This document shows, piece after piece, positions 16,457-64,000 of a stretch of 64,000 bases of DNA. Below the pieces are notes generated by a model. It did not search any database. It saw nothing but the letters and a program-made list of their open reading frames with translations, and was not told the DNA's origin. Within the stretch, counting starts at the first letter, position 1; every line of letters starts with the position of its first letter. This DNA is from Arenicellales bacterium (GTDB lineage: Bacteria; Pseudomonadota; Gammaproteobacteria; Arenicellales; JAJDZL01): positions 550,149 to 614,148 of the forward strand of contig OX638343.1 of the NCBI GenBank assembly GCA_951813075.1, in the 5' to 3' direction. The position numbers and the translations under genes are program-made.

Positions 16457-16722
16457 TTTGAAATCAGTGAATAAACAATTGTTCGCGCTTGATCATTTAA
16501 AAAAATTTCGCTCGCAGGAACTGTCGAGAAATAGATCAGCATTCATCCGAATTCCGATAATATCATCTCGATTTGCCAGCCGGGCGAGATTGCAAATTAT
16601 GATACTTAATAGTAAACTATTGCACCTATTTATTCTCACATGGCGTGTTTGGAAACTGTCAGGGTGCCTTCATTGGTGGCAGATTCGAGCCATGGTCGCA
16701 AAACCCAAATGGAGATTCTTAA

Positions 16723-17757: not shown

Positions 17758-17845
17758 ACATGAATTTGCCGCATATCGGTTTGGATGCGGAAATTCTGAT
17801 TCATCCGTACACCGCAAACAAATTAGTCTGACGGAGGAAAATAAA

Positions 17846-18688
17846 TTGGAAATCACCGCGGTCATGGTAAAGCAACTGCGGGACCGTACTGGTGCCGGAA
17901 TGATGGATTGCAAGAAAGTTCTGGTCGAATGTGATGGCGATCAAGACAAAGCTGTCGAAGTCTTGAGAAAAAAGGGTGCTGAAGTGGCGGCATCACGCTC
18001 TGGCCGGGCAGCATCAGAAGGTATGATTGTATGCGCAATGTCCGATTCTCGGGACTGTGGTGCGCTGGTCGAAGTCAACTGTGAGACCGACTTTGTCGCA
18101 CGAAGCGACGAATTCCGCACATTCGCCGAGACACTTGCCGGAATTGCACTCGGTATCGCAGAGGATTGCAACGACATCAATATTCTCAATGCGCTCTCAT
18201 ATGACGATTCCGGAAAGACCGTGGAAGATATGCGGCTTGAGGTATTGTCAAAAATTCGTGAGAACATCACTGTCAGCCGTGTTGTCGTGTTCAAAGCGTC
18301 GGAAGGCGCCATTGTTGGCAGTTATGTGCACCGGGAAAGACTCGGAATCATGGTTGAGATTACCGACCGTGCCGGCAGTGAAATTGCTGATGACCTGGCG
18401 GTTCATGTTGCAGTCAAAAAACCACAGTGGCTCGATGTTGATGACATCCCGGCACAGACGATTGTAAAAGAGCGGGACATCTATTTGGAGCAGGCGCGCA
18501 CGTCTGGCAAGCCTGATCATATTCTCGACCGGATTGTCGACGGCAAGATCGGTAAATTCTCGAAAGACAACACACTGGTCAACCAGCCGTACTACGAAGA
18601 CGAGGACAAAACCGTCGGATCGTGGCTGAAAGAATCCAACAGTTCTGCAAAACGTTTTTGTCTGATTAACCTGGGGCTGTCGGAGTAG
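17846..18688 (+). CDS. tsf: translation elongation factor Ts
   Basis: The N-terminus (M)EITAVMVKQLRDRTGAGMMDCKKVL is typical of EF-Ts. The in-frame TTG at 17846 has a GGAGGA motif 8 nt upstream. The ORF-track start at 17666 would overlap the rpsB tail and was rejected. Confidence 0.92.
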   Translation: MEITAVMVKQLRDRTGAGMMDCKKVLVECDGDQDKAVEVLRKKGAEVAASRSGRAASEGMIVCAMSDSRDCGALVEVNCETDFVARSDEFRTFAETLAGIALGIAEDCNDINILNALSYDDSGKTVEDMRLEVLSKIRENITVSRVVVFKASEGAIVGSYVHRERLGIMVEITDRAGSEIADDLAVHVAVKKPQWLDVDDIPAQTIVKERDIYLEQARTSGKPDHILDRIVDGKIGKFSKDNTLVNQPYYEDEDKTVGSWLKESNSSAKRFCLINLGLSE

Positions 18689-41450: not shown

Positions 41451-42368
41451 TCAGGCTCTATCTAGTTCTGGAATAGCATAGGGCATCTGGTCCAGCATTA
41501 ATTGCAAATTCGTTCCGTCATCTAATCGCAAACGATCGCGTCCCAGAAACTTCAGCGGAAGAGAAACAAGTAAGTTCTTATCTTCACGTTCCTGCGGACG
41601 AACGCTATTGACGATTGATCCGGTCTGCTTTCCGGGCAAGTCATCACAATAAATTAAAGAACCCGGCTCTGTCGGAGCGTCGCCAGTCACAGATGCTCTG
41701 AACATTCGTCGGTTTACACCACCTTTGTAGTGTAACCTCGCAACGATTTCTTGGCCAGGGTAGCAACCCTTGGTAAAACTGACTGTGCCGATGAGGTCCA
41801 GATTAGCTGCCTGCAAAATCAGTTCTTCTGTAGTCGAACCATTAATGAGAGGATGCATATTGTCGACTTCAAGTTGTTTCCATTCGTCCGCCAAGTTATC
41901 GTCAAAGTGTTCAGCGTATTGTTCGAAATCAGATTCATCTCCAATCACCGCTATTCTTCTGGGTTCTCCGGGCATTCGGATATATGTAAACAAATTGTCA
42001 CCCAGAACTTGAAACGCTCGATCTGGCAATACTGCAGAAAATTCTGGTAACTCGTCACCCAGCAAACCAACAATCTGCGAATCAGTCTGCATTGAAATAC
42101 TGACTTTGTCCCGAAAGACAAACATTCTCAATCGTTTTGAAAATGACTCCACAAGATCACTGGACAAAGCCAGACAGAAGTTGTCGTTCTTTTTGAAAAT
42201 GAGGAAGTTGGCAAGAATTCGACCCTTTGGGTTCAGATATGCCGAGAAACTGCATCGCTCCGGTGTGATTTCATTTATATCGTTAGTAAACTGTCGCTGC
42301 AGAAATTGCTCTGCATCTGCACCGGATATACTTACAATTCCATAGTGATTAAGTCTGGTTAGTTTCAT
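41451..42368 (-). CDS. ygfZ: folate-binding tRNA-modification protein YgfZ (CAF17 family)
   Basis: It carries the signature FTKGCYPGQEIVARLHYKGGVNRRM, has a GcvT-like fold length of 305 aa, and begins LTRLNHYGIVSISGADAEQFLQ. Confidence 0.82.
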   Translation of the reverse strand: MKLTRLNHYGIVSISGADAEQFLQRQFTNDINEITPERCSFSAYLNPKGRILANFLIFKKNDNFCLALSSDLVESFSKRLRMFVFRDKVSISMQTDSQIVGLLGDELPEFSAVLPDRAFQVLGDNLFTYIRMPGEPRRIAVIGDESDFEQYAEHFDDNLADEWKQLEVDNMHPLINGSTTEELILQAANLDLIGTVSFTKGCYPGQEIVARLHYKGGVNRRMFRASVTGDAPTEPGSLIYCDDLPGKQTGSIVNSVRPQEREDKNLLVSLPLKFLGRDRLRLDDGTNLQLMLDQMPYAIPELDRA

Positions 42369-42845
42369 TTTCTCACGTACGTATTTTGACTGGTAAATTT
42401 TCTGTCAGCATAACATCTGTAAATCAAAATAACATAAAGTAAAACTTTAATTAATAATCATTTTTCATTGATTTATAAAATATTATAAAGGGCTAATTGA
42501 GAATTTCTTGAAAATTATCCTTGCGCTAGAACATGCCATAGGCGAAACTGAGAATCATACACTATCCAATTGGTTGGATACCGATTGAAATTCCGCGATT
42601 TGAGTCGATTGCTTCAGCCGATTTCCAAGTATAAACTGCCATGAGCGAGCAACTTCTCCAGATTACCGGTTTAATTCAGCAGTTTCATCAACTTCATAAG
42701 AATCGAATGACTACACTTTTGAATTAATTCAAATTTTGTAGTTGCGAGTTATCGCCTTACAATCATCTAATCAAACAATACTTTGACAGATATAATAACC
42801 AAATAGTCGTAAGTTATTAAATTTCAAGCGTTCACAGCACTTGGT

Positions 42846-43016
42846 TTGAATAAACAAAACAACAACCAGCCACTCGACACCGAGCGAAACACGAATCTTG
42901 GACGTGCAACTCAAGCCGGTTCCGAGCCTTCACCCGGAAATTCGAAGAAGGCTCAACGACCTGATCCAACACGATACGGGGACTGGGAGAAAAATGGCAG
43001 ATGCATAGATTTCTGA
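42846..43016 (+). CDS. DUF1674 / SDHAF4-like small protein (unlisted mini-ORF)
   Basis: My own translation of this frame ends ...SKKAQRPDPTRYGDWEKNGRCIDF*, which matches the conserved DUF1674 C-terminus (P-T-R-Y-G-D-W-E-x-x-G-R-x-x-D-F). The frame is open from 42813. The only candidate start I see is a TTG at 42846 (56 codons), so the start is uncertain. It lies 31 nt upstream of sdhC. Confidence 0.6.
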   Translation: MNKQNNNQPLDTERNTNLGRATQAGSEPSPGNSKKAQRPDPTRYGDWEKNGRCIDF

Positions 43017-51130: not shown

Positions 51131-51817
51131 GTGAATGATTCTGAGTCTAACAATTTTTCGCAGGTCATTGGATACCGCTTCAACAACGCACAACTATTGA
51201 AGCGCGCACTGACGCACAGCAGCACTGAACAAGCGAACAATGAAAATCTTGAATTTCTGGGAGACACGATCCTTTGCACAGTAATTTCCGATTATCTATA
51301 CCGCAAATATCCAGCAGCCACCGAAGGCCAGCTGACTATTCTGCGCAGCCAGATTATCAACAACCGAAATGCCATTTATAGTGTAGCACTTGCAATCTCC
51401 CTCGGAGATTACATCAAAGTCGGAAAATCTTTCCCCAAAGACAATCACAACGCCTGGCGAATGCTGCTGGCAAATACACTTGAAGCACTGATTGGTGCGA
51501 TCTATCTTGATGGCGGAATGAAGAATGCGCGACAGTTCATTCTTAGTAATTTTTTGTCGTTGCTTGAGAAAAGTTCAGTCAGACGACGAAAAGACTCGAA
51601 GACCAACCTACAGGAATTTCTGCAAAAACGCTCACTTCCAATACCCGTTTACAGCACGATCGATGTCAGCGGTGAGCGACATGATCCCAGTTTTACCGTA
51701 AACTGTCGTGTCGATGGACTGATTGATTCTGTCACCGGCACAGGAAGCACAAAGAAAGAAGCCGAACAGGAAGCGGCAGCGCAAACCTATGAATTACTCC
51801 GCCAGCGAAAAATCTGA
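51131..51817 (+). CDS. rnc: ribonuclease III
   Basis: It has the RNase III signature NENLEFLGDTIL and a C-terminal dsRBD (KTNLQEFLQKRSLPIPVY...GSTKKEAEQEAA). The start is a GTG. Confidence 0.95.
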   Translation: MNDSESNNFSQVIGYRFNNAQLLKRALTHSSTEQANNENLEFLGDTILCTVISDYLYRKYPAATEGQLTILRSQIINNRNAIYSVALAISLGDYIKVGKSFPKDNHNAWRMLLANTLEALIGAIYLDGGMKNARQFILSNFLSLLEKSSVRRRKDSKTNLQEFLQKRSLPIPVYSTIDVSGERHDPSFTVNCRVDGLIDSVTGTGSTKKEAEQEAAAQTYELLRQRKI

Positions 51818-52712
51818 CGAGAATTTTCGTTCCGGCATGATTGCTCTGGCTGGGCGCCCCAATGTTGGTAAATCCACTTTACTCAACTGTTTGCTGAAAC
51901 AGAAAGTCAGCATCACATCAAAAAAAGCAAATACGACTCGTCATCGAATCATGGGCGTACTGAATGATCCGGGAACCCAGTACGTCTTTATCGACTTGCC
52001 TGGCTTCAATACGAATTACAAGCGTCTCGTAGACCGTTCCGTCTATAAAACTGCCACAACTGGAGTCAGCGGTACAGATTTAGTGTTACTTGTTATAGAC
52101 TGTCGTGGTTGGCACGAGCAGGACACTTTGGCACTGAAACGAATCCAGGACGAAAACCTACCGTTCATCGTCGTATTGTCAAAGATTGATCGGGTGAAAA
52201 ACAAAAATCTCTTGCTCCCGGTGATTCAAGATGTCGCTAAACGAACGCAAATCAATGAAATTGTCCCAGTCTCGGCTGTCAAAGACGAGAATATTGCTGA
52301 ATTGAAAAAGGCGATCTTGAAATATCTGCTGCCTGGTCCTCCACTGTTTCCGTCAGATGTAGTTACCGATAAGGGTGAGATTTTTCGGACGGCTGAGTCC
52401 ATACGTGAACAAATCTTTCGTTACTATGGTGATGAAATTCCCTACACCAGTGCAGTTCAGATTGAAAAATACGAACAAGACAACAAGGTCCTTCAGATTG
52501 ATGCGACAATTTGGGTAGAATCCAAGGGGCAGAAGCGAATCATGATCGGATCAGGCGGCTTGAATATAAAGAGAATTGGAACCGAAGTACGCACCAGGAT
52601 CGAAGCCGAGCAAGACATAAAAGTATTTCTGAATCTTTGGGTGAAAGTTCGAGCTCGCTGGACAGATGACTTGCAGTCGATTTCAAACTTTGGGTTTTCC
52701 GAAACAGACTGA
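51789..52712 (+). CDS. era: GTPase Era
   Basis: The G1 motif is ALAGRPNVGKSTL, with DLPG, SKID and a C-terminal KH domain. The ATG at 51789 lies inside the rnc 3' end. The ORF-track start at 51723 was rejected. Confidence 0.94.
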   Translation: MNYSASEKSDENFRSGMIALAGRPNVGKSTLLNCLLKQKVSITSKKANTTRHRIMGVLNDPGTQYVFIDLPGFNTNYKRLVDRSVYKTATTGVSGTDLVLLVIDCRGWHEQDTLALKRIQDENLPFIVVLSKIDRVKNKNLLLPVIQDVAKRTQINEIVPVSAVKDENIAELKKAILKYLLPGPPLFPSDVVTDKGEIFRTAESIREQIFRYYGDEIPYTSAVQIEKYEQDNKVLQIDATIWVESKGQKRIMIGSGGLNIKRIGTEVRTRIEAEQDIKVFLNLWVKVRARWTDDLQSISNFGFSETD

Positions 52713-52717
52713 GACAG

Positions 52718-53425
52718 ATGCGCGTTTACAGACAGGATTGCTTCGTGTTGCGGACCACTCCGTATTCCGAATCAAGTTTGATCGTGGATATGTTCACCCG
52801 GAACTATGGCCGGATAAATTTACTCGCAAAAGGAGCTCGGCGGGAAAAATCCAGATTCAGAGGATTGATCAGGCCGTTTCGATGCCTGGCTGCAAATTGG
52901 TCGGGTAAGGGTAACGTCCCGACTCTGACCGGATTGAAAATTGAATCTGAAGATTATCGGATCCCAAGCGAGAACCTTTACTGCCGTTTCTATCTAAATG
53001 AATTACTTGTTCGCTTGATTCTGGATCGGGACCCACACGAAGTTCTATTCGACGCTTATTACCTTGCGATGGAACAATTGAAAGAACCCTCCAATGAATT
53101 TCACACACTTCGGGTATTTGAGAAAGTTTTCCTTCAAGAACTGGGATATGCCTTGAAACTGACCTCTGAATCGGACTCCAAGGTTACAATCGACCCGTTC
53201 AAGGAATATATTTATGACTTTGATCAGGGACCAATTCAGGCGAACAGCGAAGATACTCAAACGATATCAGGTGCGACACTACTTGCAATTGCGCGAGAAG
53301 AATTCAAAACCAAACGAGTGAAATCAGAAAGCAAACTACTGCTTGGTGCAGCGATCGATCACTATCTGGAAGGCAGGCCGATCCACTCCCGCAAAATTTA
53401 CAATCAGACGATCCAACACCGTTAG
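52718..53425 (+). CDS. recO: DNA repair protein RecO
   Basis: It sits in the conserved position after era. The N-terminal OB region FVLRTTPYSESSLIVDMFTRNYGRINLLAKGARR is typical of RecO. Confidence 0.88.
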   Translation: MRVYRQDCFVLRTTPYSESSLIVDMFTRNYGRINLLAKGARREKSRFRGLIRPFRCLAANWSGKGNVPTLTGLKIESEDYRIPSENLYCRFYLNELLVRLILDRDPHEVLFDAYYLAMEQLKEPSNEFHTLRVFEKVFLQELGYALKLTSESDSKVTIDPFKEYIYDFDQGPIQANSEDTQTISGATLLAIAREEFKTKRVKSESKLLLGAAIDHYLEGRPIHSRKIYNQTIQHR

Positions 53426-53437
53426 ATTGATATTACC

Positions 53438-53719
53438 TCACTTCTTGCGTTGCGTCGTGAAACCAGGTGGCAGACTTCCCATGTCGCCTTCGCCGAATAG
53501 AAAGCCAAGCATATGTTGCTCAATCAATTTATGTGTTTCAGGGTCACTTGTCGTCAGTTGGTTCTCGTTAATGATTGTTACAAGACGTTCCAACCATTGT
53601 TTCCAACCCTCTTTCGATACATTCTCCACTATACGCAGACCCAATTCTCCCGGGTAGGGAGGGCTGGTCAATGCTTCGGACTTTTCTTTTAGGATGACAC
53701 AATCTACGAGGTTTGCCAT
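53438..53719 (-). CDS. yggX: Fe(2+)-trafficking / oxidative-damage protection protein YggX
   Basis: The stretch YPGELGLRIVENVSKEGWKQWLERLVTIINENQL...LIEQHMLGFLFGEG aligns by eye with E. coli YggX ([34 protein letters not shown]). Confidence 0.87.
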   Translation of the reverse strand: MANLVDCVILKEKSEALTSPPYPGELGLRIVENVSKEGWKQWLERLVTIINENQLTTSDPETHKLIEQHMLGFLFGEGDMGSLPPGFTTQRKK

Positions 53720-53981
53720 AACGGAAGTTTAATTGAAAATTCAAGCAGGGTACTTGCAAAGTGCTGTAAACCGATCAGTTCGTATCTATGACAAGTACGA
53801 ATGTGAACCTATATGTTGGATTGTATTGCAAACACTGAAGTGGAGTAGGGAAATATGTTGATGCTCAATTGATATTAGGTACAATTGCGAATGAATAATT
53901 GAAATATACGACTACAATTCTGTATTACCGACAAACAACAAATGCTGTTTTTGCAACATTCGTTGGAACCCAAAGAGGCAT

Positions 53982-54134
53982 ATGATCATGTTTGATTCAG
54001 CCGATACTATATTACTTATATTCACTACAACATTCTCTCTAATAATTTTTTTTACCATGTTGTTATTTATCTATTATCTGTTGAAACTAATGAGGCTTTC
54101 AATCAAGAAAAAGGATATCGAAATTAAAATTTTA
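53982..54134 (+). CDS. hypothetical small hydrophobic protein (50 aa; type-I-toxin-like architecture)
   Basis: My own translation reads MIMFDSADTILLIFTTTFSLIIFFTMLLFIYYLLKLMRLSIKKKDIELKF*. It has one long hydrophobic helix and a basic tail. An AAGAGG motif at 53973-53978 lies 3 nt and 9 nt upstream of two in-frame ATGs (53982 and 53988). I recognise no homology. It is below the ORF-track size cut-off. Confidence 0.25.
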
Positions 54135-54674
54135 GAACAAGCAAATACCAATCAATAGCGTAACCGACAATCATAACTGGTTGCCTCATGGAGCATTACC
54201 CAATACCGCAACTAACAAGCCCGATCGCAATCAGCTAATTGATTACGTGAAGTAATCGGCGAACGCAACAGATAGCCTTGATTGCACTTGCACACTTCTA
54301 ATAAAAGCCGGTTATGTATTCCTAAAAAGAAAAGACAAACATATTCGAAATACCACATTTATTCAATATTATCAGTCTCTTATGGTGTGATCGAAGAATA
54401 TATGTGCGAGGCCTAGATCGCTGGTTTGATGTGCATTCATCGCAAATTGAATAGTGAGGCTCAGGTTCGCTGAGATTTTGAAGAAAAATTTTCACTAGAA
54501 GAAAATAATGCGGCTAAGTGATCTATAATTCGCGGTTTTCGGGCGATTATCTTCAATGAAGTCCACTTATTGGCTCATGAGTCTTGCATATTCTTCTCGT
54601 TCATAGATAATTAAACAATACCAGTCGAGTTTCAAATTTTCGTGACTCGACGATTCAAATGGCAAAGTAAGTTT

Positions 54675-55037
54675 ATGGATTATCAATTAAACATTTCAGA
54701 ATCAGAAATGAAGGTAACAGAAGCTGCCGGTAATAAGATGGCAGAGCTGATTCAATCAACCGACGAAGAAATCAAAGGTATTCGGGTTTATGTGTCAGGA
54801 GGAGGTTGCGGAGGCATGAGTTATGGGATGACTTATGCTGATTCCGAATCCCAATATGACCGGGTACTGAATGGTGATAATTTTCGCCTTTTTGCTGATG
54901 TAGTCGCCCTCCAATACCTTTCAGGTGCTGAAATCGACTATGTCGACGATGGAATACAAGCGACCTTCGTATTCCACAATGTCTTCCAATCTGTAGGTGG
55001 TACAGGTGCGTGTGGCGGTTGCGGCGCAGCACAATAA
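54675..55037 (+). CDS. HesB/IscA (A-type Fe-S carrier) family protein with atypical C-terminal Cys motif
   Basis: The stretch IRVYVSGGGCGGMSYGMTYAD matches the ErpA/IscA core ([21 protein letters not shown]). The C-terminus reads GACGGCGAAQ instead of the usual CGCG-x-SF. I preferred the ATG at 54675 to the GTG at 54642. Confidence 0.85.
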   Translation: MDYQLNISESEMKVTEAAGNKMAELIQSTDEEIKGIRVYVSGGGCGGMSYGMTYADSESQYDRVLNGDNFRLFADVVALQYLSGAEIDYVDDGIQATFVFHNVFQSVGGTGACGGCGAAQ

Positions 55038-55136
55038 ATAGTAATCGCTAGCGTTAGCTTTTCAGAAACAATCAATAAATCGCAGAAAGCGATTGTTCTG
55101 ATCGCTCCATCATACAGTTATCGCTCATCCGTATAT

Positions 55137-56348
55137 TTGTCGGCTTCGGACCGGCAAGGTATACCAATCATACTTGTAACGGATGGTGATTCAGAGCTTT
55201 CACCAAAGTATCGTGCGGGATTTCGTGTAGATTTTTCAGCTACGAATTTCGTTGTCGATTCAATAGTTGACCAATTGGAGGACAAAGAAATCTGTGCAGT
55301 GATCGCGCCAGATGAAAAATTCGTTGGAATTGCAGCAAACGTTGCTCGACGATTGAATCTGCCACACAACCGCGTTGAATCTATCCAGACATCGGTCAAC
55401 AAGGTTTTGGCCAGAACTGTATTGTCGAAGTCGAAAGTACTTGTCCCACAATTTTGGACGGTTGAGCTTGACGGGGAAATTGCGATACAAATCAAGGATA
55501 TCCGATATCCCTGCGTTGCGAAACCTACCAGTCTATCTGCTAGTCGAGGGGTTATCCGAGCCGACAATAACGCTCAACTTATAGAGGCGATCGAACGTAT
55601 CCGAAACTTACTTCGAAAAGAACAGGGAAACGATTTAAAACAAAGAATACTGATTGAACAATACATCCCGGGGTCGGAACATTCGCTCGAAGGCTATCTT
55701 TCAAATGGCAAGTTAGAAACAATCTGTATTTTTGATAAGCCAGAGCCCATGGAAGGCCCGTTTTTTGAAGAAGTTTATTTTGTAACGCCATCAATATTAG
55801 ATAACAACATCCAAAATAAGATACGGGACTCAGTACTCGAAGCTTGCCAGGCATATGGATTGAAAATGGGGCCAATTCATGCGGAAGTTCGAATAAACAA
55901 TTCAGAAGTATGGATTCTGGAGATAGCGGCCAGATCTATCGGCGGAGATTGTGCACGATTGTTCGAGTTGGCTACAAATTCCAGTCTTGAAGAATTTATT
56001 TTGTGTAAGAGTGCAGGGCAGTCGACAAGCCGGTTGGAATTTCACCAGTCCTCTGGCGTGGCAATGATCCCAATAGCAGTTGAAGGTATACTGAGACGAG
56101 TAGAGGGTGTGACTGATGCACAATCTGTGGAAGGTGTTCTGGATGTCAGAATAGACGTTCGATCCGGCGAGAAGTTGACCCCTTTACCTGAAGGAGGGAA
56201 ATATCCCGGATTCATATACGTCCAGGCAGATACTCCACAATTGGTAGAACAGTCTCTTCGTGAGGCAATCGCCAATATAGGGTTTGTCTGTATGCCAGAA
56301 CTGCCACTAGTAGTGCGCAATGACACAGCTGCAGAATTTAGTTCGTAG
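55137..56348 (+). CDS. ATP-grasp domain protein (carboxylate-amine / L-amino-acid-ligase-like)
   Basis: The 403-aa ORF contains IRYPCVAKPTSLSASRGVIRADN, ILIEQYIPGSEHSLEGYL, FDKPEPMEGPFFEEVYFVTPS and GPIHAEVRINNSEVWILEIAARSIGG, which are typical ATP-grasp B/C-domain motifs. The start is a TTG and is uncertain. Confidence 0.8.
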   Translation: MSASDRQGIPIILVTDGDSELSPKYRAGFRVDFSATNFVVDSIVDQLEDKEICAVIAPDEKFVGIAANVARRLNLPHNRVESIQTSVNKVLARTVLSKSKVLVPQFWTVELDGEIAIQIKDIRYPCVAKPTSLSASRGVIRADNNAQLIEAIERIRNLLRKEQGNDLKQRILIEQYIPGSEHSLEGYLSNGKLETICIFDKPEPMEGPFFEEVYFVTPSILDNNIQNKIRDSVLEACQAYGLKMGPIHAEVRINNSEVWILEIAARSIGGDCARLFELATNSSLEEFILCKSAGQSTSRLEFHQSSGVAMIPIAVEGILRRVEGVTDAQSVEGVLDVRIDVRSGEKLTPLPEGGKYPGFIYVQADTPQLVEQSLREAIANIGFVCMPELPLVVRNDTAAEFSS

Positions 56349-56386
56349 AAGTTCGTCAAGTCATAATAAAATTATGCACTAAGTTG

Positions 56387-56413
56387 CGATTTCCTTTTTT
56401 CGAAGGGAAATCG
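56387..56413 (+). terminator. hairpin downstream of the ATP-grasp gene
   Basis: The arms cgatttcc and ggaaatcg form an 8-bp stem around the loop ttttttcgaag. No T-run follows the 3' arm, so its function as a terminator is uncertain. Confidence 0.3.
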
Positions 56414-56434
56414 TATTCACTATTTGTGCTCCGT

Positions 56435-56510
56435 TCCCCGGTAGCTCAGCAGGCAGAGCAGGTGGCTGTTAACCATCTTGTCGGCGGTTCGATCCCGTCC
56501 CGGGGAGCCA
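56435..56510 (+). tRNA. tRNA-Asn (anticodon GTT), CCA encoded
   Basis: I folded the cloverleaf by hand. The acceptor stem pairs tccccgg with ccgggga. The D stem is gctc/gagc. The anticodon stem is ggtgg/ccatc with loop ctGTTaa. The T arm is ggcgg-ttcgatc-ccgtc. The discriminator is g and the end is cca, giving 76 nt. Confidence 0.93.
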
Positions 56511-56548
56511 TTTTTTCGAGGACGATACAACGCCTCAATAGATAACGC

Positions 56549-56580
56549 GACGCCCCGAAGGGCGATCCCGTCGGGGCGTC
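56549..56580. other. perfect 10-bp inverted repeat (strong GC hairpin) 39 nt after the tRNA
   Basis: The sequence is gacgccccga, then agggcgatcccg, then tcggggcgtc. The stem is 10/10 complementary with a 12-nt loop. No T-run is present on either strand. Confidence 0.5.
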
Positions 56581-56913
56581 ACGTATCTAGCGTGTTTCCA
56601 CGCAGTTACGCTCTTTCCCACATTCTCCTCGATTCTCCGGTTATGAAAATCCACGTGGCGTGCCGCGTGCAATCAGGGAGGGGGTTGCGCACAGGGATCC
56701 CGCGATTTCGTTTCCGAATTCTACAATTCTCCATTTTCGTTCCGCGTTTTTTACAGCCCGTTTCCCCAAGGGCCTCCGCGCTTCGAAAATTTCTAACTGA
56801 CGCCAGTAGATATTCGGCGGAGATTGGGCCACGGGGGGCCGGCTGATCACCGGACAATCCCAAAGTGGGGATTTTTCGTCGGTGCTTTTAGGGAAATTAA
56901 AATCGGTGCTTAC

Positions 56914-57338
56914 ACCTGCGATCTCGATGGCTTCGGCCTGATTCTGGTGCAGTACGAGTTGCTTGCCAAACGTGTCGATCGGTCGTTTGAGCCTGAAGAC
57001 CTTCGCGCATTCCTCGTCGAGTGTGCCCGTTGACACGAAGTCATCGATGGACCCTCCCGGCACGAAGTTCGGGTTCAACTGGATGAGCGGAGCGGGCCAA
57101 AAACGGCCGCCCGCGTAAGCCTCATTCACGGCCTGGAGGATGTCCTCGCCCGGATATTGGTAAAGCTTCGAGAGAAGCGTTCGTATTCGGATACAAGTTT
57201 TTCTCGGAAAGCGAAGACGTCTATCAGGCACCCTCCCGTCGCTCGAACCGCCCTCGGAGACTGGGTAGACCAGCTACACGTGAGGCACGTCGAGGATGGC
57301 TTGTGTTCAAGAGTGGTTTGGTCAACGCAATGCACTCC
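56914..57338 (-). pseudogene. N-terminal fragment of an SF2 DEAD/DEAH-box helicase (frameshifted and truncated)
   Basis: Two minus-strand frames join to read ...IDVFAFREKLVSEYERFSRSFTNIRA / EDILQAVNEAYAGGRFWPAPLIQLNPNFVPGGSIDDFVSTGTLDEECAKVFRLKRPIDTFGKQLVLHQNQAEAIEIAG. This resembles the N-terminus and Q-motif region of large defence-type helicases. There is a 1-nt frameshift near 57135-57155. No Walker A or helicase core follows after about 56914. Confidence 0.6.
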
Positions 57339-57374
57339 TCATCAAGATCAAGTCGGATTCGAGATCTCATATTC

Positions 57375-58427
57375 CTAATGCCTTTGGGTTCCGTTGATCG
57401 TCGCTTCGGCATACCGAAGCTGTTCCATGACCCAACCGAAATCCGGGACATCGCCAAGGATCATGCCCTGCATAGCTCCGTAATCTCGTTCAATCACCGT
57501 ACGCAGGTCCGGCTGCGGAACCAATCTCACCGATCCGGGGATGGCTTCTTCGAACCTCTTCCAGGCCTGCCGGAACGCGGTGAGGTTGTGGCTCCGGACC
57601 GCGTCCAGCAGATCGATATCGGATAGGGCGAACCTGCCGGTCTCCGTCGCCGTGATCATCGCGACGTCGTAGTAGTGGCGTGAGATGCCATCCCTGTCGG
57701 CCGGCAGACGCTCTGCGTCCCGGTATCCGCAATGCACACCGTGCAGGATCAGTAGCTTTTCCCAATAGGTGCGCTCGGGCGCGATCACCCTGATGTCGCC
57801 CACGTCGAACGACCAGTCCGGTAGTTCGTCGGCGACATAGGGGGTGATGGTGCAGTTCAAGCTGGGATCGAGCGCCGACCTCGCTCCCGCCTCGATCCTC
57901 ACGCGCGGCGCCACATAGGCGATATCGCCGCTCGGATACAGAGTGGGGTACTCGACGAAGAGCGTCTGCCCGTCGACGTCGTCCTCATCTGGAACGACGT
58001 GGCACCCATCGACGAGATCGTCGATGAGTCTCGTCAGAGCTATCTGCAAGTCTCCGCGAATGTAGCCGCTGCAAGATGCCCTGAGTTCCATGAACAGGGC
58101 TGCCCGTCTCCTGTTCGATAGATTCTTTGCCACGGTCGGATCGCGCTCGCCTTCGAACCCGAGTGCGTCACGAAAGACGACGAGATCGATGTCCTCGGAG
58201 AACCGTTCGATGAGTCCGAAAGCCTTGGAAAGGGACGTCCCGCCCTTGAAGAGCAGGTTAGGATGCCCAACGGGCAGCCGGTTGTAGAGTGCGTCGAGAA
58301 CGAGGCAGACCCAAAAGTCCTTCTCCACATAGCCGGGCAACGTGTCGAGACGGCTTGCCGTCGCCTCGAAGACATCCTGTCTGTCCTGCTCCGGGAGGGA
58401 GAGAAAGGTTTCGGCGTTTCCAGTCAT
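57375..58427 (-). CDS. nucleotidyltransferase AbiEii/AbiGii-family toxin (type IV TA / abortive infection)
   Basis: The 350-aa ORF contains the motif LLFKGGTSLSKAFGLIERFSEDIDLVV, typical of DUF1814/AbiEii nucleotidyltransferases. It overlaps the upstream partner by 4 nt. Confidence 0.85.
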   Translation of the reverse strand: MTGNAETFLSLPEQDRQDVFEATASRLDTLPGYVEKDFWVCLVLDALYNRLPVGHPNLLFKGGTSLSKAFGLIERFSEDIDLVVFRDALGFEGERDPTVAKNLSNRRRAALFMELRASCSGYIRGDLQIALTRLIDDLVDGCHVVPDEDDVDGQTLFVEYPTLYPSGDIAYVAPRVRIEAGARSALDPSLNCTITPYVADELPDWSFDVGDIRVIAPERTYWEKLLILHGVHCGYRDAERLPADRDGISRHYYDVAMITATETGRFALSDIDLLDAVRSHNLTAFRQAWKRFEEAIPGSVRLVPQPDLRTVIERDYGAMQGMILGDVPDFGWVMEQLRYAEATINGTQRH

Positions 58428-59047
58428 ACGGCAACGGCCTCTTCACTCGTGATGCTGCGCACCAGCGGTAATGCCCATCCGGGTAGATCGCGGCTGTTTT
58501 GTAACAGGTCGCGCTTTACATCATCGGGAAGGTGACGACTCAAAGTCGAAAGGACCCGCGTGTCCGCGGCGGCGGCGGGACCAAGCCACCGCAGCGCCTG
58601 AACCACCGGGGCCGCAGGTCTTCCTGCCCATTGCATGACGCTCGGACCTGCGTGTCGGAACTGGATCGTTCGTCCGTCGATCTTGACGGTCCTCGAGTGG
58701 CCGTCAGTCACGAAGCTGACCTTCGCGGGAACCGCGTTCGTGAGCCCCAGCTGATTCGCTGCGACCAGGCCATCCGTCATGATCCTGACACCGTCCCGCC
58801 TCGCCAGCGCTGCGATGACGGCGGCCAAGTCGACCGGCGCGGGCCGATTCAGTACGTTACTGAACCGGGGCATGTCGTAGAGGCCGTGGCCGACGCGGCG
58901 CAGCTCGCCGGCTTTGACGAGCCGCGAGAGCGCCTGGTCAACGGCCTCACGGCTCCCGAGGTCCAGGAAGTCCTTCGGCGAGCACACCCAACTCCCGCTG
59001 TCGTGCGCGGACACCCTCTTCATGATCTTGTCAGCCATCGGGGTCAT
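58424..59047 (-). CDS. AbiEi-family antitoxin / transcriptional regulator (DUF6088-like)
   Basis: The 207-aa ORF has an N-terminal winged-helix-like segment AVDQALSRLVKAGELRRVGHGLYDMP. It lies immediately upstream of, and is translationally coupled to, the AbiEii gene. Confidence 0.8.
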   Translation of the reverse strand: MTPMADKIMKRVSAHDSGSWVCSPKDFLDLGSREAVDQALSRLVKAGELRRVGHGLYDMPRFSNVLNRPAPVDLAAVIAALARRDGVRIMTDGLVAANQLGLTNAVPAKVSFVTDGHSRTVKIDGRTIQFRHAGPSVMQWAGRPAAPVVQALRWLGPAAAADTRVLSTLSRHLPDDVKRDLLQNSRDLPGWALPLVRSITSEEAVAV

Positions 59048-59090
59048 CGGATCACATCCTGTTCGCGGTTAACCATTGACGATAGTCAGA

Positions 59091-59119
59091 AATATACTCT
59101 AATTATCTTACAGTGGCAA
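59091..59119 (-). promoter_or_regulatory. candidate sigma70 promoter of the abiEi-abiEii operon
   Basis: On the minus strand the sequence reads TTGCCA, then 17 nt, then TATATT. It lies in a local AT-rich patch about 45 nt upstream of the abiEi ATG. The palindromes ggttaacc (59068-59075) and tgacgatagtca (59077-59088) lie between the promoter and the start codon. Confidence 0.4.
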
Positions 59120-59166
59120 CGAAATTCTCCACAACCGCTTGATGCGTGAGCGATAGGTGTTCAACG

Positions 59167-59873
59167 ATGTGTGGCCGTTTCACCCTGAAGCTGACCTGGC
59201 GTTAGATTCACGATCTGTACAGCCTGAGGGGACCGTCGCTGCCGCTGAATCTGCAACGGCGCGCCGGCGCAGGACTTTCCGGCCTGCCGACTCGATGAGG
59301 ACGGGAACCGCTCCATCGCCCAGCTCCGCTGTGGGCTAGTGCCCGCTTGGTCCAAAGACAGCCGGATGAGCACGCACCGTGTCAATGCCCGGGCAGAGAC
59401 CGTCCACACCAATCCTTTGTTCGGTGACGCATTCCGCTCACGACGGTGCTTACACTTGGAGCCGGCCAATGGGTGGTTCGAGTGGCAACGGACCAGGCAC
59501 GGCAAGCAGCCTTTCTTCCTGGCGCTCGCGGATGGATCGCCGCTGTCGTTCGCCGCGCTGTGGGAGTACTGGAGCAAGGACGGAGAATCCTTGGAGTCCT
59601 TCGCCATCATTACGACGGCAGCCTCCCCGCCCCCTGGCCGACATCCACCATCGGCAACCGGCGATTATCGACTCCAACTGGTTCGACGACTGGCTCGATC
59701 TGACGTCGCCGGTCCCGTGGCTCCTCGAGCTGGTGCGTGAACCCCATGCCGGTCCCTACGAGAGGCGCCCCGTCAGTACCAGGGTGAATAGCGTCCAGAA
59801 CGACGACCCGGATATCACTGCTCGCGGTGCCGGAGAGGGGCCTATTCTGACCAGAGGGGCGGGAATGTCCTAA
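59167..59873 (+). pseudogene. SOS response-associated peptidase (SRAP / YedK family) pseudogene
   Basis: It starts MCGRFTLKLTWR and then hits an in-frame TAG at 59203-59205. Homology continues in the same frame (EIHDLYSLRGPSLPLNLQ). It then shifts frame (DFPACRLDEDGNRSIAQLRCGLVPAWSKD...NARAETVHTNPLFGDAFRSRRCLHLEPANGWFEWQ...FAALWEYW...ESFAIITT). A third frame follows (LADIHHRQPAIIDSNWFDDWLD...PVSTRVNSVQNDDPD). Confidence 0.78.
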
Positions 59874-59943
59874 ACATCGCTTCCGCCTCCAATTCGCTGA
59901 ATCAGAAAAGAGGAAACCGGCGACAACTGCCAAGTAATTTTAA

Positions 59944-60000
59944 TTTGAACGCGAGTAATCTTATCTGAACACCGAGTAACCTTTAACTGAACACCGCTTC
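59944..60000. repeat. three tandem imperfect ~20-22-bp direct repeats at the distal island edge
   Basis: The core tgaac(g/a)c(c)g occurs at 59946, 59966 and 59988. The first two units share tgaacNc(c)gagtaa(t/c)c. The units read tttgaacgcgagtaatc / tctgaacaccgagtaacc / actgaacaccgcttc. Confidence 0.6.
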
Positions 60001-60552
60001 TTCATTTGGTTGTTCGGTATCCTGAATCTCGTGACACATTCAAATATAAGTCTGTGACATCGCGATGACGATGACGCCATCATCGAAGAAACAAGCTACG
60101 TTTGTTCTAGAAAGGGTTTATTATCCAGAGCCGAACGGTAAGTGGTCCTGGAGAGGGTGGTGCGAGGGGAGCAATATCTCTTACCGTCAATTCAAGCGAA
60201 CTATCAATATACCTCTTGAAACAAGATTCGAGATTCAACCGACCAAATGCATATGCCAAAACTACTTGTCAAATAGGCTTCTCCGACAAAGAGGTGGGTA
60301 GCGTAGGCGATACAAGTCGTAAGATTCAGAAAAGTGCTCGGATTCTCGGACAACATTATCCCCGATTGTCTCCATCAGGCACCGCCTATAGAGTCTATAC
60401 ACGGGAGATCAGCGGATAGATGACAACTACAATGAATAGGCGATTAAATTTGACGCACTATTTCCCAAGAACCCGAATCGAGTCCCCCACGGCTCAATTT
60501 GGGATCCAGACCAGCGGTACGATCTGGACTGATTGGAAATTTCTGGAAAAAT

Positions 60553-61488
60553 TCAACTGCTCTTTGACTGTATCGACCTAAGATGGCGAGCAAACTCGTC
60601 TTTTGACATCAACTCGACGCAGCGGGTAAATCGCTCGACAGAATAAGCCCAAAAGTCCTCAGCAGGATTTTTGTTCATATGTTGGATCAAACCCCAAAGT
60701 GTCCAGAGCAGATCGCACAATGCTTTGTAGATAATCATCCGACCCACATCGTAGTCATTCGGCGAGCGGCCCAGATATCCCGTTAACAACACAATTTCCG
60801 ATTCTGACGACATTGCTCCTTCAACTGAAAGATCCCCTAGGTCCCAGTAAGGATCGTTCATTCCCGAATATTCCCAATCTACGATCCACATCTTGTCTGA
60901 TTGCTTGATAAAGTTTTCGCATAGAGGGTCGCAGTGACTAGGGACGAGATTTTCAGGATTATCCATCAGTACGGTTTGCACGGATTTACTCTGATCAACT
61001 GTTTCATGGTATCCATCTGGTAGTTCTACCGATTCTCCTTGCGCAAGTAAATCAAGATATTCATTGATCATCGAAAACACCTCAAAGCGAAATTTGAAAT
61101 TTTCACCACAATTGTGAAGCCTGCTGAATGCCTTCCCCGCCTCGCGGACTGCATTTTCATCTGATTGAAACTTTTCGCCGCTCATGGTCTCGCTGTCATT
61201 CAAATACTGTGTCAACATAAGTCCGTCTTCGGAGAAAAAGAAGACTTCCGGGCTGACTCCTGCACGTTCTGCCACTTTAGCATTGTGCTTTTCAACCGCT
61301 CGATCTATATAACTCTCGGTTCCTTCTCCTGGAATCCGAAGGCAATAGTCATTCTCCTCGGTGGAAATTCGATAAACAAGATTGGTTAAACCACCCAGAC
61401 GTTCGTAATCAATCGCACCAAGCGGAATGTTTGTCAACTGCGGCACACGCTGGATCGCATTACGTACTTCGGACTCCATAGAAATCAT
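60553..61488 (-). CDS. choline/ethanolamine kinase-like phosphotransferase (APH superfamily)
   Basis: The 311-aa ORF has the N-terminal lobe LGGLTNLVYRI and Brenner/kinase motifs PSHCDPLCENFI and WIVDWEYSGMNDPYWDLGDL. Confidence 0.8.
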   Translation of the reverse strand: MISMESEVRNAIQRVPQLTNIPLGAIDYERLGGLTNLVYRISTEENDYCLRIPGEGTESYIDRAVEKHNAKVAERAGVSPEVFFFSEDGLMLTQYLNDSETMSGEKFQSDENAVREAGKAFSRLHNCGENFKFRFEVFSMINEYLDLLAQGESVELPDGYHETVDQSKSVQTVLMDNPENLVPSHCDPLCENFIKQSDKMWIVDWEYSGMNDPYWDLGDLSVEGAMSSESEIVLLTGYLGRSPNDYDVGRMIIYKALCDLLWTLWGLIQHMNKNPAEDFWAYSVERFTRCVELMSKDEFARHLRSIQSKSS

Positions 61489-61575
61489 CTCCTAACTTAA
61501 ATCAATATTTCTAATAATTATTATTTTATATCATTATGTTACTATCACAATCTAATGTCATTTATTATTTTCCAG

Positions 61576-63996
61576 CTATCCTCTAACCCTGATATTGACT
61601 TTTGAATACAGCGCTTTCTCGTGAGGTTTGATCGAAATTGTTCCTTGAATAGTCTCAAGTTGAATATGCTGATTGGTGTCTTGATCAGCAGGCAGAAAAG
61701 CATAACAAATCGATTTCCCCACAGTGTGACCGTAACCGCCAGATAGAGTTGAACTGATCACTTCATCTTCGCAAAGTAACGGCTCTCCACCATACAGTGG
61801 AACAAATCCTCTATAACTGAAACAATACAGTTTTCTTTTGACGCCGTCGTTAGCGATATTTTGGAGCGCTTTTCGTCCGACAAACTGTTCTTTACTGAAA
61901 TTTATCCGATAACTCAATCCTGTTTCAAATGGATTAATATAAGGAGAAATTTCGCCACTCCAATACAAATATCCGTTCTCCATTCGGAGAGAATCAAGAG
62001 CCCGATATCCTGCATTCGTGATTCCATACTCTTGTCCTGCCTCAAATAATTTGCGATAAACTTTCAACGCATATTCATTTTTCATGTAAAGTTCCCAACC
62101 AAGTTCGCCGGTATATGACAGACGTGCGGCTTTTACTGAAAATCCATCTAATTCAAGATCCTGGAATGTCAGATAAGGGAATGAAGCATTGGATACGTCA
62201 GATTCCGTGATCTTTTCTAAAATTTTGCGCGAACGAGGCCCACACAGATTGAGAACGGAATAATTATCGGTAATTTCCCGTATCCGCACATCATGCCCAG
62301 GTGGAATGTTCCGGTCAATCCAATCTCTATCGTGTACTCCGAAACCAGACCCTGTAATCAACCAGAATGTCTGCTCTGCAATCCGAAATAAAACCACATC
62401 ACACTCAATGCCTCCATCTTCGTTGCACATCTGTGCATAAGTTACTGTACCAATTGGACGATTTACGTTACAAGTTGATAAATGGTTCAAACAAGCAAGC
62501 GCATCCTTACCAGTAATTTCAAACTTGAAAAAAGAAGTTTGATCGATGAGCGCCGCATGGTTTCGTATTGCGTGGCATTCCCTACCGACTGCATCAAACC
62601 AGTTGGGCTTGCCGAACGTGGGAACATCCTTGGGATTCTCATCACCGGATGCAAACCAATTCACTCTTTCCCACCCAAACTTGGCGCCGTAAACCGCACC
62701 TGCACATTTCAATTCCCCATACAACGGGGAACATCGAATCTTACGACCTGATTGCGGTTCTTCGTACGGCCAATGAAGCTTGTAGTATCGACCGTAACTC
62801 TGCAATGCCCGTTGCTCCAGGTAAGGTGATTCTGCATGAAATTGCCCGAACCTTCGGATGTCAAATGACCACAAATCAAGAGTAGGGCGCCCGTCGACAA
62901 TCCACTCTGCCATGGCTCTGCCTGCACCGCCACAAGCAGCAATACCGGCAGTAAACCCGCACGCGGTGTAGAAATTGTCTGTACCGCTGACTAGTCCCAT
63001 TACCGGTTCACCATCAGCACTGACTGGGATCGGGCCGTTAATTAGTGTCTTTACACCAAGTCTTTTGATTATTGGCAATCGCTTTGCCGTCAAATCAAAA
63101 ATCTGATCAAATCGTTCATAGTTGCTGTTGAACAATGTACGATTGAAGTCACGTGGAAAATTTGTGCTGTCGATGGCAATTGAATCATCTTCCCATCCAC
63201 CGAATTCAAATGCACCGGCTTCTGGCTTGAGGTAGAAATTTCGATCAGGGTCGCGCAATGTTGGCAAACCGTCCAGAATTTCATCTGACTTCTCAGTTAT
63301 CAAATACTGATGTTCCACGATTCCCGCAGGGATGGAACAACCCGCCAACTGACCGATCTGTCTCGCCCACAAACCTGCACAGTTCACAACAACATCACAC
63401 TTAATTGTTCCGCAATCAGTCTCAACTGCACTAATTCGCCTGTCTGTTCTGACAAATCCAGTCACCATGACGTGCTCAACAATCTTTCCGCCCATCATGC
63501 GAAATCCTTTGGCTAGTGATTGAGTCAGGCCATAAGGATCAACGTAGCCATCCTCAGGCAACAGAGCAGCGCCATAGATGGAACTGCTATCGATCAACGG
63601 GAATAAATCTACAGCTTCATTTCCATCCAATAATTGAAGGCCAATGTTGAACGCGCGAGCCTTGATGGCCATCTGTCGAATTTCCATCCAGCGATCCCGA
63701 CTCGATGCAAGTCGAAGACTGCCCACCGGTTTCCAGCCTGGTGATAAACCTGTTTCCTTCTCCAACTGACCGAACAGTTCGGTGCTGTACTGCATCAGTC
63801 GAGTCAACCCTAGCGTTCCCCGCAATTGTCCGACGAGGCCGGCAGCATGCCAGGTGCAACCATTGGTGAGCTCTGATTTCTCAATAAGCAATACATTTCG
63901 CTTTCCAAATTTCGCAAGATGATAGGCGACGGAAACACCAATGACACCACCCCCGACGATGACAATCTCAGCCTGATCTGGAAGCGAGTTCTCCAT
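61576..63996 (-). CDS. FAD-dependent dimethylglycine/sarcosine dehydrogenase-like oxidoreductase with GcvT (aminomethyltransferase) C-terminal domain
   Basis: The 806-aa ORF has the N-terminal FAD fold EIVIVGGGVIGVSVAYHLAK and CTWHAAGLV. The C-terminal half is GcvT-like (GYRALDSLRMENGY, LSYTGELGWELY). The ATG lies 4 nt from the window end. Confidence 0.9.
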   Translation of the reverse strand: MENSLPDQAEIVIVGGGVIGVSVAYHLAKFGKRNVLLIEKSELTNGCTWHAAGLVGQLRGTLGLTRLMQYSTELFGQLEKETGLSPGWKPVGSLRLASSRDRWMEIRQMAIKARAFNIGLQLLDGNEAVDLFPLIDSSSIYGAALLPEDGYVDPYGLTQSLAKGFRMMGGKIVEHVMVTGFVRTDRRISAVETDCGTIKCDVVVNCAGLWARQIGQLAGCSIPAGIVEHQYLITEKSDEILDGLPTLRDPDRNFYLKPEAGAFEFGGWEDDSIAIDSTNFPRDFNRTLFNSNYERFDQIFDLTAKRLPIIKRLGVKTLINGPIPVSADGEPVMGLVSGTDNFYTACGFTAGIAACGGAGRAMAEWIVDGRPTLDLWSFDIRRFGQFHAESPYLEQRALQSYGRYYKLHWPYEEPQSGRKIRCSPLYGELKCAGAVYGAKFGWERVNWFASGDENPKDVPTFGKPNWFDAVGRECHAIRNHAALIDQTSFFKFEITGKDALACLNHLSTCNVNRPIGTVTYAQMCNEDGGIECDVVLFRIAEQTFWLITGSGFGVHDRDWIDRNIPPGHDVRIREITDNYSVLNLCGPRSRKILEKITESDVSNASFPYLTFQDLELDGFSVKAARLSYTGELGWELYMKNEYALKVYRKLFEAGQEYGITNAGYRALDSLRMENGYLYWSGEISPYINPFETGLSYRINFSKEQFVGRKALQNIANDGVKRKLYCFSYRGFVPLYGGEPLLCEDEVISSTLSGGYGHTVGKSICYAFLPADQDTNQHIQLETIQGTISIKPHEKALYSKVNIRVRG

Positions 63997-64000
63997 TTTT

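Follow-up and report, generated by a model that had tools for sequence, protein, structure and literature searches.

A high-GC islet next to tRNA-Asn in an Arenicellales bacterium is a probable imported remnant of a defence island that retains an intact AbiE operon

Here we examine a 64,000-nucleotide (nt) stretch of the genome of an Arenicellales bacterium (contig OX638343.1; hereafter the window), and in particular an islet rich in guanine plus cytosine (GC) that lies between a tRNA-Asn gene and a choline/ethanolamine-kinase-like gene and carries an intact abiEi–abiEii toxin–antitoxin operon next to the remains of a helicase gene and of an SRAP gene. We consider it very probable that the block at 56915–59927 is the horizontally acquired remnant of a defence island, with traces reaching ~60180. 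Intact elements related to the parent are found in bacteria of other phyla with ~60% GC. Read in this way, the locus would be a clean, datable cross-phylum transfer that brought a defence-island fragment into an uncultured marine gammaproteobacterium, at 91% DNA identity to the donor lineage and with its GC content unshifted, and it would illustrate the general rule that, after landing, a toxin–antitoxin pair survives while its neighbours rot, the SRAP gene having been inactivated twice independently. Current understanding is left unchanged, and the value of the case lies in annotation and in a small case study of hotspot turnover.

The islet is the sole compositional outlier of the 64 kb (GC ~0.60). 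In 300-nt windows, the GC content amounts to 0.53–0.68 across ~56.45–59.9 kb versus 0.40–0.48 on either side, and outside 56–60 kb the highest 1-kb bin reaches 0.514. A sliding-window test of GC and tetranucleotide composition, which had been proposed in an earlier reading of this DNA made from its letters (the sequence-only reading), returned an outlier at 56.5–59.9 kb with z = +6.1 for GC and z = +9.0 for the tetranucleotide L1 distance, measured against a background of 233 1-kb windows (GC 0.464 ± 0.026). The hand counts of 62–78% GC given in that reading agree with the 60-nt lines of 56511–59935 (median 0.617, maximum 0.783); its figure of ~25% for the neighbouring spacer was too low, 56349–56434 measuring 0.349. 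The bounds that it drew, 56511–59935, enclose the outlier itself but not the imported DNA as such: the first ~100 nt are native tRNA trailer, and the donor-homologous block is limited to 56915–59927, with patchy homology onward to ~60180. The stretch that differs from the sister species, 56511–60544, is wider than the GC island (coordinates of all features are collected in Table 1).

To place the block among its relatives we relied on homology searches, exact-protein look-ups with the AbiEii and ATP-grasp sequences of the window having given no match. The AbiEii protein has thousands of close homologues, the nearest of them 95% identical and encoded in other genomes, and the donor-type loci that we compared (L077–L083 and L086) carry a related AbiE module. 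The first of these, a 1.08-Mb contig with 60% GC (L077; ERZ26167216 ctg495236), is 91.2% identical to the window at the DNA level over 56916–59613 and 59770–59927, with the same gene order and orientation. Here a serine recombinase of 534 amino acids (aa) with Resolvase, Recombinase and Zn_ribbon domains adjoins SRAP and is followed by AbiEi, AbiEii, a DEAD/MZB/DUF559 helicase, an SNF2 protein, a 75-aa product and, ~8 kb beyond the helicase, a 509-aa tyrosine integrase. L081 joins the SRAP–AbiE module to a 1295-aa DruE-like helicase, a DUF1998 protein, a DpdE/DrmD-like SNF2 protein and an MmeI-like methyltransferase, and a DruE-like helicase likewise adjoins the block in L082 and L083. In L079 and L080 the module lies beside a type III restriction–modification-like set inside a prophage, while L078, L082, L083 and L086 are further variants of it. 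The BLASTX-type search that had been suggested for a parent has thus brought up intact parent-like elements (L077 and L081). The accompanying claim that the DNA is foreign is also upheld, since the block has kept a donor-like composition: the GC content at third codon positions (GC3) of the abiE genes is 0.75–0.77, equal to that of the donor (0.77), and that of host genes 0.39–0.47.

The outer-membrane protein encoded near one of the 95%-identical AbiEii proteins (L086) has named relatives in Latescibacterota and Gemmatimonadota, and the named AbiEii homologues at 77–78% identity come from Desulfurellaceae, Gemmatimonadetes and Truepera, which indicates that the module circulates across phyla. 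A scan of Joint Genome Institute (JGI) metagenome contigs for closer donors yielded nothing above 73%. We also considered, and rejected, the idea that SRAP, AbiE and helicase form a broadly conserved module: synteny is limited to copies that are at least ~80% identical in DNA, and AbiE relatives on viral contigs, at 61–70%, come without SRAP and helicase.

The slot that the islet occupies has conserved borders. The tRNA-Asn (GTT) gene, the only tRNA gene in the window, follows an ATP-grasp ligase gene, whose sequence marks the host as an uncultured Arenicellales gammaproteobacterium; this gene order is kept in the ten Arenicellales relatives surveyed for their flanks (among them three sister species, L001–L003, which at ~82% DNA identity are the closest species compared, and the more distant L004, L005, L006 and L015). 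Homology to the sister species breaks off where the tRNA ends (56510) and is picked up again at 60545, immediately 3' of the choline-kinase-like gene, with flanks that are 81–83% identical in DNA and flanking core genes that are 82–89% identical. What the sister species hold in between is non-homologous to the window, and four configurations are seen: beside that of the window, a ParE-like/Phd-like pair with AbiE fragments in L001, Phd with an intact AbiE pair in L002, and ParE/Phd with one full and one partial AbiEi and an IS630 insertion sequence (IS) in L003, the ParE and Phd assignments having been made by eye from the sequence rather than with hidden Markov models. Apart from the IS, these contents have a GC of 0.44–0.50. 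The AbiE genes of the slot fall into three lineages, one comprising the window, the conspecific scaffold L136 and the high-GC copies (85–96%), another L002 and one of the two L003 copies (L003b; 89%), and the third the other L003 copy (L003a) and L001 (79%), with 55–71% identity between lineages. Because sister species fill the same slot with ParE/Phd and with two other AbiE lineages, we regard it as a hotspot for toxin–antitoxin and defence genes. The sequence-only reading was right about the foreign block but overlooked the hotspot, the sister AbiE alleles and ParE/Phd; the locus is more than a one-off insertion.

That all four species carry AbiE genes in this slot, in one and the same orientation, might be taken to mean that the pair was already there in the common ancestor with L001–L003, its high GC being a local compositional or selective quirk. 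This is extremely unlikely: AbiEi and AbiEii of the window are 85–95% identical to proteins of unrelated high-GC genomes and only 55–71% to the sister alleles (flanks, 82–89%), the 91% DNA identity to L077 extends over non-coding parts, GC3 equals that of the donor, and neither SRAP nor helicase traces, nor any of a recombinase, were found in the slots of L001–L003.

An abrupt compositional change could likewise result from a high-GC contig of another organism having been wrongly joined into the Arenicellales contig, an alternative that had been raised from the start and that fits with the coexistence, in related samples, of high-GC organisms with near-identical modules. The other conspecific assemblies and scaffolds that carry the island (L076, L084, L085 and L136–L141) virtually rule it out. 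Two of them, L084 (3.08 Mb) and L085, derive from different European Nucleotide Archive analyses, differ both from the window and from one another, and span the whole island with both junctions and both flanks at 99.2–99.3% identity over 51377–64000. Seven more scaffolds from several samples (L076 and L136–L141) cover the right junction and so join the island to the choline-kinase side, L076 and L136 reaching the kinase gene itself; both flanks are syntenic with the sister species across the slot; and the lesions specific to each lineage of the island follow the strain phylogeny. The one further point in favour of a chimera is that the short-read scaffold L076 ends (at its position 9203) exactly at the 56915 breakpoint, which hints at a branch in the assembly graph, caused for instance by a coexisting longer island variant or by near-identical donor sequence in the sample. 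The Arenicellales locus of L085 (ERZ18545484 ptg000616l, 9.2 Mb) lies ~20 kb from the contig end, and this contig, ~3 times the size of the related 3–4 Mb chromosomes, may be mis-joined or concatenated.

Comparison of these strains also provides a history of the block, which every conspecific strain that was sampled carries. Type A (the window, L076, L084 and L085) shares an SRAP stop codon, an 11-bp deletion, a 6-bp insertion and a frameshift, together with an ATG-to-ATA change and a 1-bp deletion in the helicase, and these SRAP and helicase lesions are absent from the donors and from L136. Type B (L136–L141; 96.9% identity) has none of them; it possesses an SRAP frameshift of its own, keeps the helicase ATG, and carries an IS110-family transposase after ~codon 18 of the helicase stub (equivalent to 57171 of the window). 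As the type A and type B lesions differ, SRAP was intact or nearly so on arrival and has decayed twice independently, and the helicase too broke down after arrival, separately in the two lineages. The window and L136 differ by 3.2% in the island and 2.9% in the core, which is not a significant difference, and the equal divergence places the acquisition before the split of these two strains. The island had been called old; it is indeed older than the ~3% strain split, but its GC has not shifted towards that of the host. All six type-B contigs end in or before the IS110 copy.

At the centre of the block, both abiE reading frames are full and match their families in Pfam and PADLOC, in line with the earlier recognition of an intact pair. 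The two genes lie on the same strand with the antitoxin first, and the abiEi stop codon overlaps the abiEii start codon by 4 nt (ATGA). The nucleotidyltransferase motif I–II of AbiEii (GG-x15-DID) reads GGTSLSKAFGLIERFSEDID (residues 62–81) and fits the hG[G/S]x15DhD pattern of PMC3985639; PF08843 is covered from profile position 7 to 237 of 238, and WEKLLIL and HYYDV offer candidate residues for motifs III and IV (the Lys/Arg motif and the Asp192-equivalent). A promoter-like site for the operon is found at 59119→59091 on the minus strand (TTGCCA-17-TATATT, 10/12 matches). By the sequence criteria tested, the operon thus appears to be a member of the AbiE family. Both open reading frames (ORFs) are intact in ten conspecific assemblies, and the ratios of non-synonymous to synonymous substitution rates (dN/dS) relative to the donor copies, 0.14–0.20 for abiEii and 0.13–0.20 for abiEi, show that the pair is under purifying selection.

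The AbiE family has been described as a type IV toxin–antitoxin and abortive infection system in Streptococcus agalactiae and Lactococcus, including its mechanism, its role in stabilizing mobile elements and its contribution to phage resistance (Dy et al. 2014, PMC3985639). The operon of the window resembles these systems in its bicistronic abiEi–abiEii organization with overlapping stop and start codons, in combining a winged helix-turn-helix (wHTH) antitoxin of the COG5340/DUF6088 type with a DUF1814 nucleotidyltransferase toxin that bears the GG-x15-DxD motif, and in being borne on mobile DNA. It differs in that its proteins, known here from their sequences, are only distant relatives whose membership comes from profile matches, and in that the copy is stranded in the chromosome without its carrier element. 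By analogy with the family (PMC3985639), AbiEi would repress the operon and neutralize the nucleotidyltransferase toxin AbiEii, and the pair would resist its own loss through addiction, loss being counter-selected, and may abort phage infection.

The genes on either side of the operon have fared differently, and the earlier description of a cargo related to defence or DNA damage in which two of four genes are broken holds: the AbiE pair is whole, and the helicase stub and SRAP are pseudogenes. Aligned with the donors, the stub has lost its start codon (ATG to ATA, 57224–57222), carries a 1-bp deletion near 57147 and is truncated at 56915. Since every donor-type alignment ends at 56915–56918, position 56915 represents a true breakpoint inside the helicase gene. 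The 105-aa stub itself matches nothing in PADLOC or Pfam, and it was identified by aligning it to the complete L081 protein. In L077 and L081, the parent genes are similar to the DruE (Druantia) and DrmA-type DUF1998 helicases that go with SNF2 proteins, in that they match PADLOC DruE3 (1.6e-89 for the 1295-aa L081 helicase) and that their neighbours match DpdE/DrmD (2e-207 and 7e-88); however, the window holds only a non-functional stub of the first ~103 codons, and the parent system fits no canonical Druantia, DISARM or Dpd gene set.

SRAP genes are often borne on mobile elements. Compared with the YedK/HMCES proteins of its family (PF02586), the copy in the window keeps the SRAP domain and a recognizable N-terminal MCGRF with the catalytic Cys2, but codon 13 has become a premature stop and at least two frameshifts interrupt the gene, which leaves it a pseudogene. 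Its lesions were located by alignment to the donor copies and to L079, whose SRAP is intact: the stop (CAG to TAG), the 11-bp deletion near 59252–59257, the 6-bp insertion at 59449–59454, and two additional 1-bp insertions, one within 59614–59640 and the other at 59817. The gene is decayed in most donor-type copies too, with a 156-bp deletion in L077 (8740–9309) and frameshifts or stops in L081 (8746–9051), L078 and L082, and among them the prophage copies L079 and L080 alone have kept it intact; long-read indel errors in low-coverage contigs may account for some of the donor-type lesions.

An 11-mer, CGGTGCTTACA, stands both at 56904–56914, exactly at the helicase truncation point, and at 59444–59454 within the SRAP pseudogene; the final 6 nt of this second copy (CTTACA) make up the insertion that is peculiar to type-A strains. 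Chance alone would give ~0.3 such 14/15 matches in 4 kb; both copies lie on lesions, and the repeat may be the footprint of a recombination or transposition event.

How the block came to lie beside a tRNA gene is a separate matter, and a composition jump beside a tRNA does not in itself amount to integrase-mediated insertion into that tRNA. The sequence-only reading had described the island as fused to the 3' end of tRNA-Asn. Instead, the CCA end is followed by ~100 nt of native trailer, and donor homology starts only at 56915. The parts of this trailer (the 10 nt after CCA, TTTTTTCGAG; a hairpin; and the GCGTGTTT block) are homologous to the tRNA-Asn trailers of L004, L005, L006 and L015, with a local alignment score of 19.5 versus 8.8 ± 1.4 for shuffles; the same comparison scores 7–10.5 in L001–L003 and L008–L010, and the trailer is absent from L001–L003. 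Given that the hairpin (18-nt arms, 89% complementary) has a GC of 75%, part of the apparently immediate GC jump at the tRNA is due to native DNA.

These observations bear directly on the mechanism proposed in that reading, in which a tyrosine integrase inserted the element into the 3' end of tRNA-Asn and both the integrase and the distal attachment (att) repeat later decayed. Transfer RNA genes are a common target (18 of 41 E. coli defence hotspots lie at tRNA loci, and frequently no mobile element can be detected there; PMC10121019), the parent-like L077 carries its tyrosine integrase ~8 kb beyond the helicase, and the slots of the sister species begin exactly at the tRNA CCA end. Yet a rebuilt attP end would replace the trailer, and the trailer shared with L004, L005, L006 and L015 precedes the foreign DNA, whose donor homology begins 405 bp from the tRNA. 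Aligned locally to the slot, the 3' half of the tRNA (40 nt) reaches at best 10.5–11.5 (null, 11.0 ± 1.2), and searches of the window and of the L001–L003 slots for a tRNA-derived att repeat or a displaced trailer gave nothing above shuffled controls. Nor did Pfam scans of the island ORFs and of six-frame pieces of the flanks detect an integrase, excisionase or other recombinase domain. The earlier statements that there is no recombinase and no tRNA-derived direct repeat are hence borne out by domain scans and local scores alike, whereas the tRNA-targeting integrative element to which they were attached displays none of its three hallmarks (integrase, distal repeat, start at the tRNA end) and is an unlikely explanation. 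In the terms of the classical tRNA-integrated islands (Williams 2002, as far as cited in PMC10121019), the locus is similar in being tRNA-adjacent, of foreign composition, sporadic among species and loaded with accessory cargo, and it differs in having neither integrase nor tRNA-derived direct repeat, in keeping the native trailer and in its foreign DNA starting ~100–400 bp downstream of the tRNA.

The other end of the imported DNA is more ragged. Past 59927, a 65-nt stretch that is specific to the window and has no counterpart in L077 holds a 22-nt near-tandem repeat at 59961–59996 (TTATCTGAACACCG / TTAACTGAACACCG), and CTGAACACCG is found nowhere else in the window. Farther on, a 60-nt block at 60121–60180 on the minus strand corresponds to the final ~20 codons of the serine-recombinase ORF in L077 (blastn, 78%, E = 8e-7; tblastn, 11/19 identities, E = 5e-4 in a single-sequence search). 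Large serine recombinases leave no long repeats. Such an enzyme would therefore fit the absence of long repeats here, although its trace is weak.

We tentatively favour arrival within a larger, L077-type element that was possibly borne by a recombinase and later suffered deletions. The block lies in the slot between the native, terminator-like tRNA-Asn trailer and the choline-kinase-like gene, outside the tRNA gene. Since its arrival, the helicase has been shortened to ~103 N-terminal codons and deprived of its start codon, SRAP has been inactivated by different lesions in two strain lineages, and the mobility genes, if any came in, have been lost; only the abiEi–abiEii operon has stayed intact. 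Possible as well, if somewhat unlikely, is direct capture, in which ~3.3 kb of foreign DNA delivered by transformation, by transduction or from a degraded element was joined by illegitimate or microhomology-mediated recombination, no site-specific recombinase ever having been involved. The arbitrary ends of the block, at helicase codon ~103 and 54 bp past the SRAP stop, and the lack of att-like repeats would be natural outcomes of such a capture, and the prophages L079 and L080 that hold the module are possible transducing vectors (AbiE relatives also occur on viral contigs). On the other hand, the patchy homology to L077 that runs on past the block for ~250 bp and reaches the 3' end of the recombinase ORF suggests a longer, eroded insert, and the 304-bp piece beside the breakpoint, at a GC of 0.535, is unlike the native AT-rich spacer. 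The present data fit direct capture as well as a larger element with deletions.

The 304-bp piece itself is one of two things: native sequence, or the far terminus of the original element, which an internal deletion would have left in place. Searches of the sister species, the donor loci, Pfam, Rfam and the protein database gave no match to it. For the flanks as a whole (56611–56914 and 59928–60552), blastn and tblastx against all fetched loci gave no origin for either side, six-frame pieces had no Pfam assignment (E ≤ 10), and Rfam (E ≤ 1) found the tRNA only. A concatenated six-frame flank query against a set of 5.8 billion proteins returned no hit, a weak negative in that a known conspecific ORF was also missed (probable candidate saturation). 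As a miniature inverted-repeat transposable element or an IS end, the 304-bp piece was rejected, having neither a terminal inverted repeat nor a second copy in the window.

Several points weigh against the reading of the block as an imported remnant, or at least loosen it. The survey of ten relatives found no empty slot, with the choline-kinase-like gene coming straight after tRNA-Asn (in more distant genera other genes stand there), and it is non-homology and composition that argue for an insertion. The 304-bp piece and its 359-bp counterpart on the right could not be assigned to either host or donor, which leaves the insertion points and the arrival route loose. The match at 60121–60180, the sole putative recombinase trace seen, is a weak one. 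L076 differs from the window by 1.0% in the island versus 2.9% in the core (p = 3e-8), which suggests later recombination among strains and complicates the dating. Finally, the present-day function of the AbiE pair, its defence role included, is a prediction from its family.

Seen as a hotspot, the slot is comparable to the defence hotspots described by Hochhauser et al. (2023, PMC10121019) for E. coli and to those of P. aeruginosa, as far as these are cited there. Its flanks are conserved, with the ATP-grasp ligase and tRNA-Asn genes to the left and the choline-kinase-like gene to the right, the cargo between them varies by species, and the occupied slot of the window contains defence or toxin–antitoxin genes and no mobility genes. 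In contrast to those hotspots, the slot is much smaller (1.7–4 kb), its content is mostly toxin–antitoxin pairs and fragments of genes instead of whole multi-gene systems, and no empty state was seen in the sample, which covers four species and ~ten strains of one uncultured Arenicellales clade.

The finding of three AbiE lineages in the same orientation in four species, with no recombinase, could even indicate that the slot is a dedicated AbiE landing pad, a notion that we consider highly unlikely. If it were true, incoming AbiE cassettes would displace residents, and a foreign AbiEi might neutralize the resident toxin ("anti-addiction") and thereby permit its replacement; alternatively, capture might be guided by AbiE-flanking sequence. 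In either case, toxin–antitoxin pairs would drive the turnover of the locus. The CGGTGCTTACA repeat at two lesion points could then be the footprint of the process that makes the joins.

Table 1. Features of the islet and its borders (positions in the window)
Feature	Coordinates	Strand	Evidence and remarks
tRNA-Asn (GTT)	56435–56510	+	ARAGORN; Rfam tRNA 59.2 bits; core gene
Native tRNA trailer	56511–56610	+	TTTTTTCGAG, GC hairpin 56545–56584, then GCGTGTTT; outside the island
304-bp piece	56611–56914		GC 0.535; identical in L084 and L085
DruE-like DEAD/DUF1998 helicase, 5' fragment (codons 1 to ~103), pseudogene	56915–57224	−	82% identity to residues 2–104 of the 1295-aa L081 helicase
abiEii, predicted DUF1814 nucleotidyltransferase toxin, 350 aa, intact	57375–58427	−	PF08843 1e-34; PADLOC AbiEii 4.8e-91
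abiEi, predicted wHTH antitoxin/autorepressor, 207 aa, intact	58424–59047	−	DUF6088 (PF19570) 5.6e-31; AbiEi_4 (PF13338) 1.6e-5; PADLOC AbiEi 1.5e-61
abiEi–SRAP divergent intergenic region	59048–59166		GC 0.445; conserved in donor copies
SRAP (YedK/HMCES-type) pseudogene	59167–59873	+	PF02586 matches on two frames; three-frame translation shows the gene spread over three frames
Right end of imported DNA	59874–60185		91% to L077 until 59927, patchy beyond
359-bp piece	60186–60544		Host-like GC 0.44; not shared with sister species; homology resumes at 60545
Choline/ethanolamine-kinase-like gene, right core flank	60553–61488	−	PF01633 5e-25; 87–89% aa identity in L001–L003

High-GC mobile DNA enters the neighbourhood of tRNA-Asn repeatedly. 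Downstream of this gene, L003 has a frameshifted IS630 with a GC of 0.60 (13821–14986), and L015 a block with a GC of 0.56–0.61 (~15400–17900) that contains a 770-aa ORF and is flanked by transposase-like ORFs. To the right of the choline-kinase-like gene, L001 (14098–18902) and L003 (16377–21181) possess two tandem DMGDH-like paralogues (DAO/FAO_M/GCV_T) that are 85% and 39% identical to the copy in the window, which ends inside the first of them. Elsewhere in the window, the even GC background of 0.45–0.51 is interrupted by local dips at 42001–43000 (0.388) and 54001–55000 (0.380).

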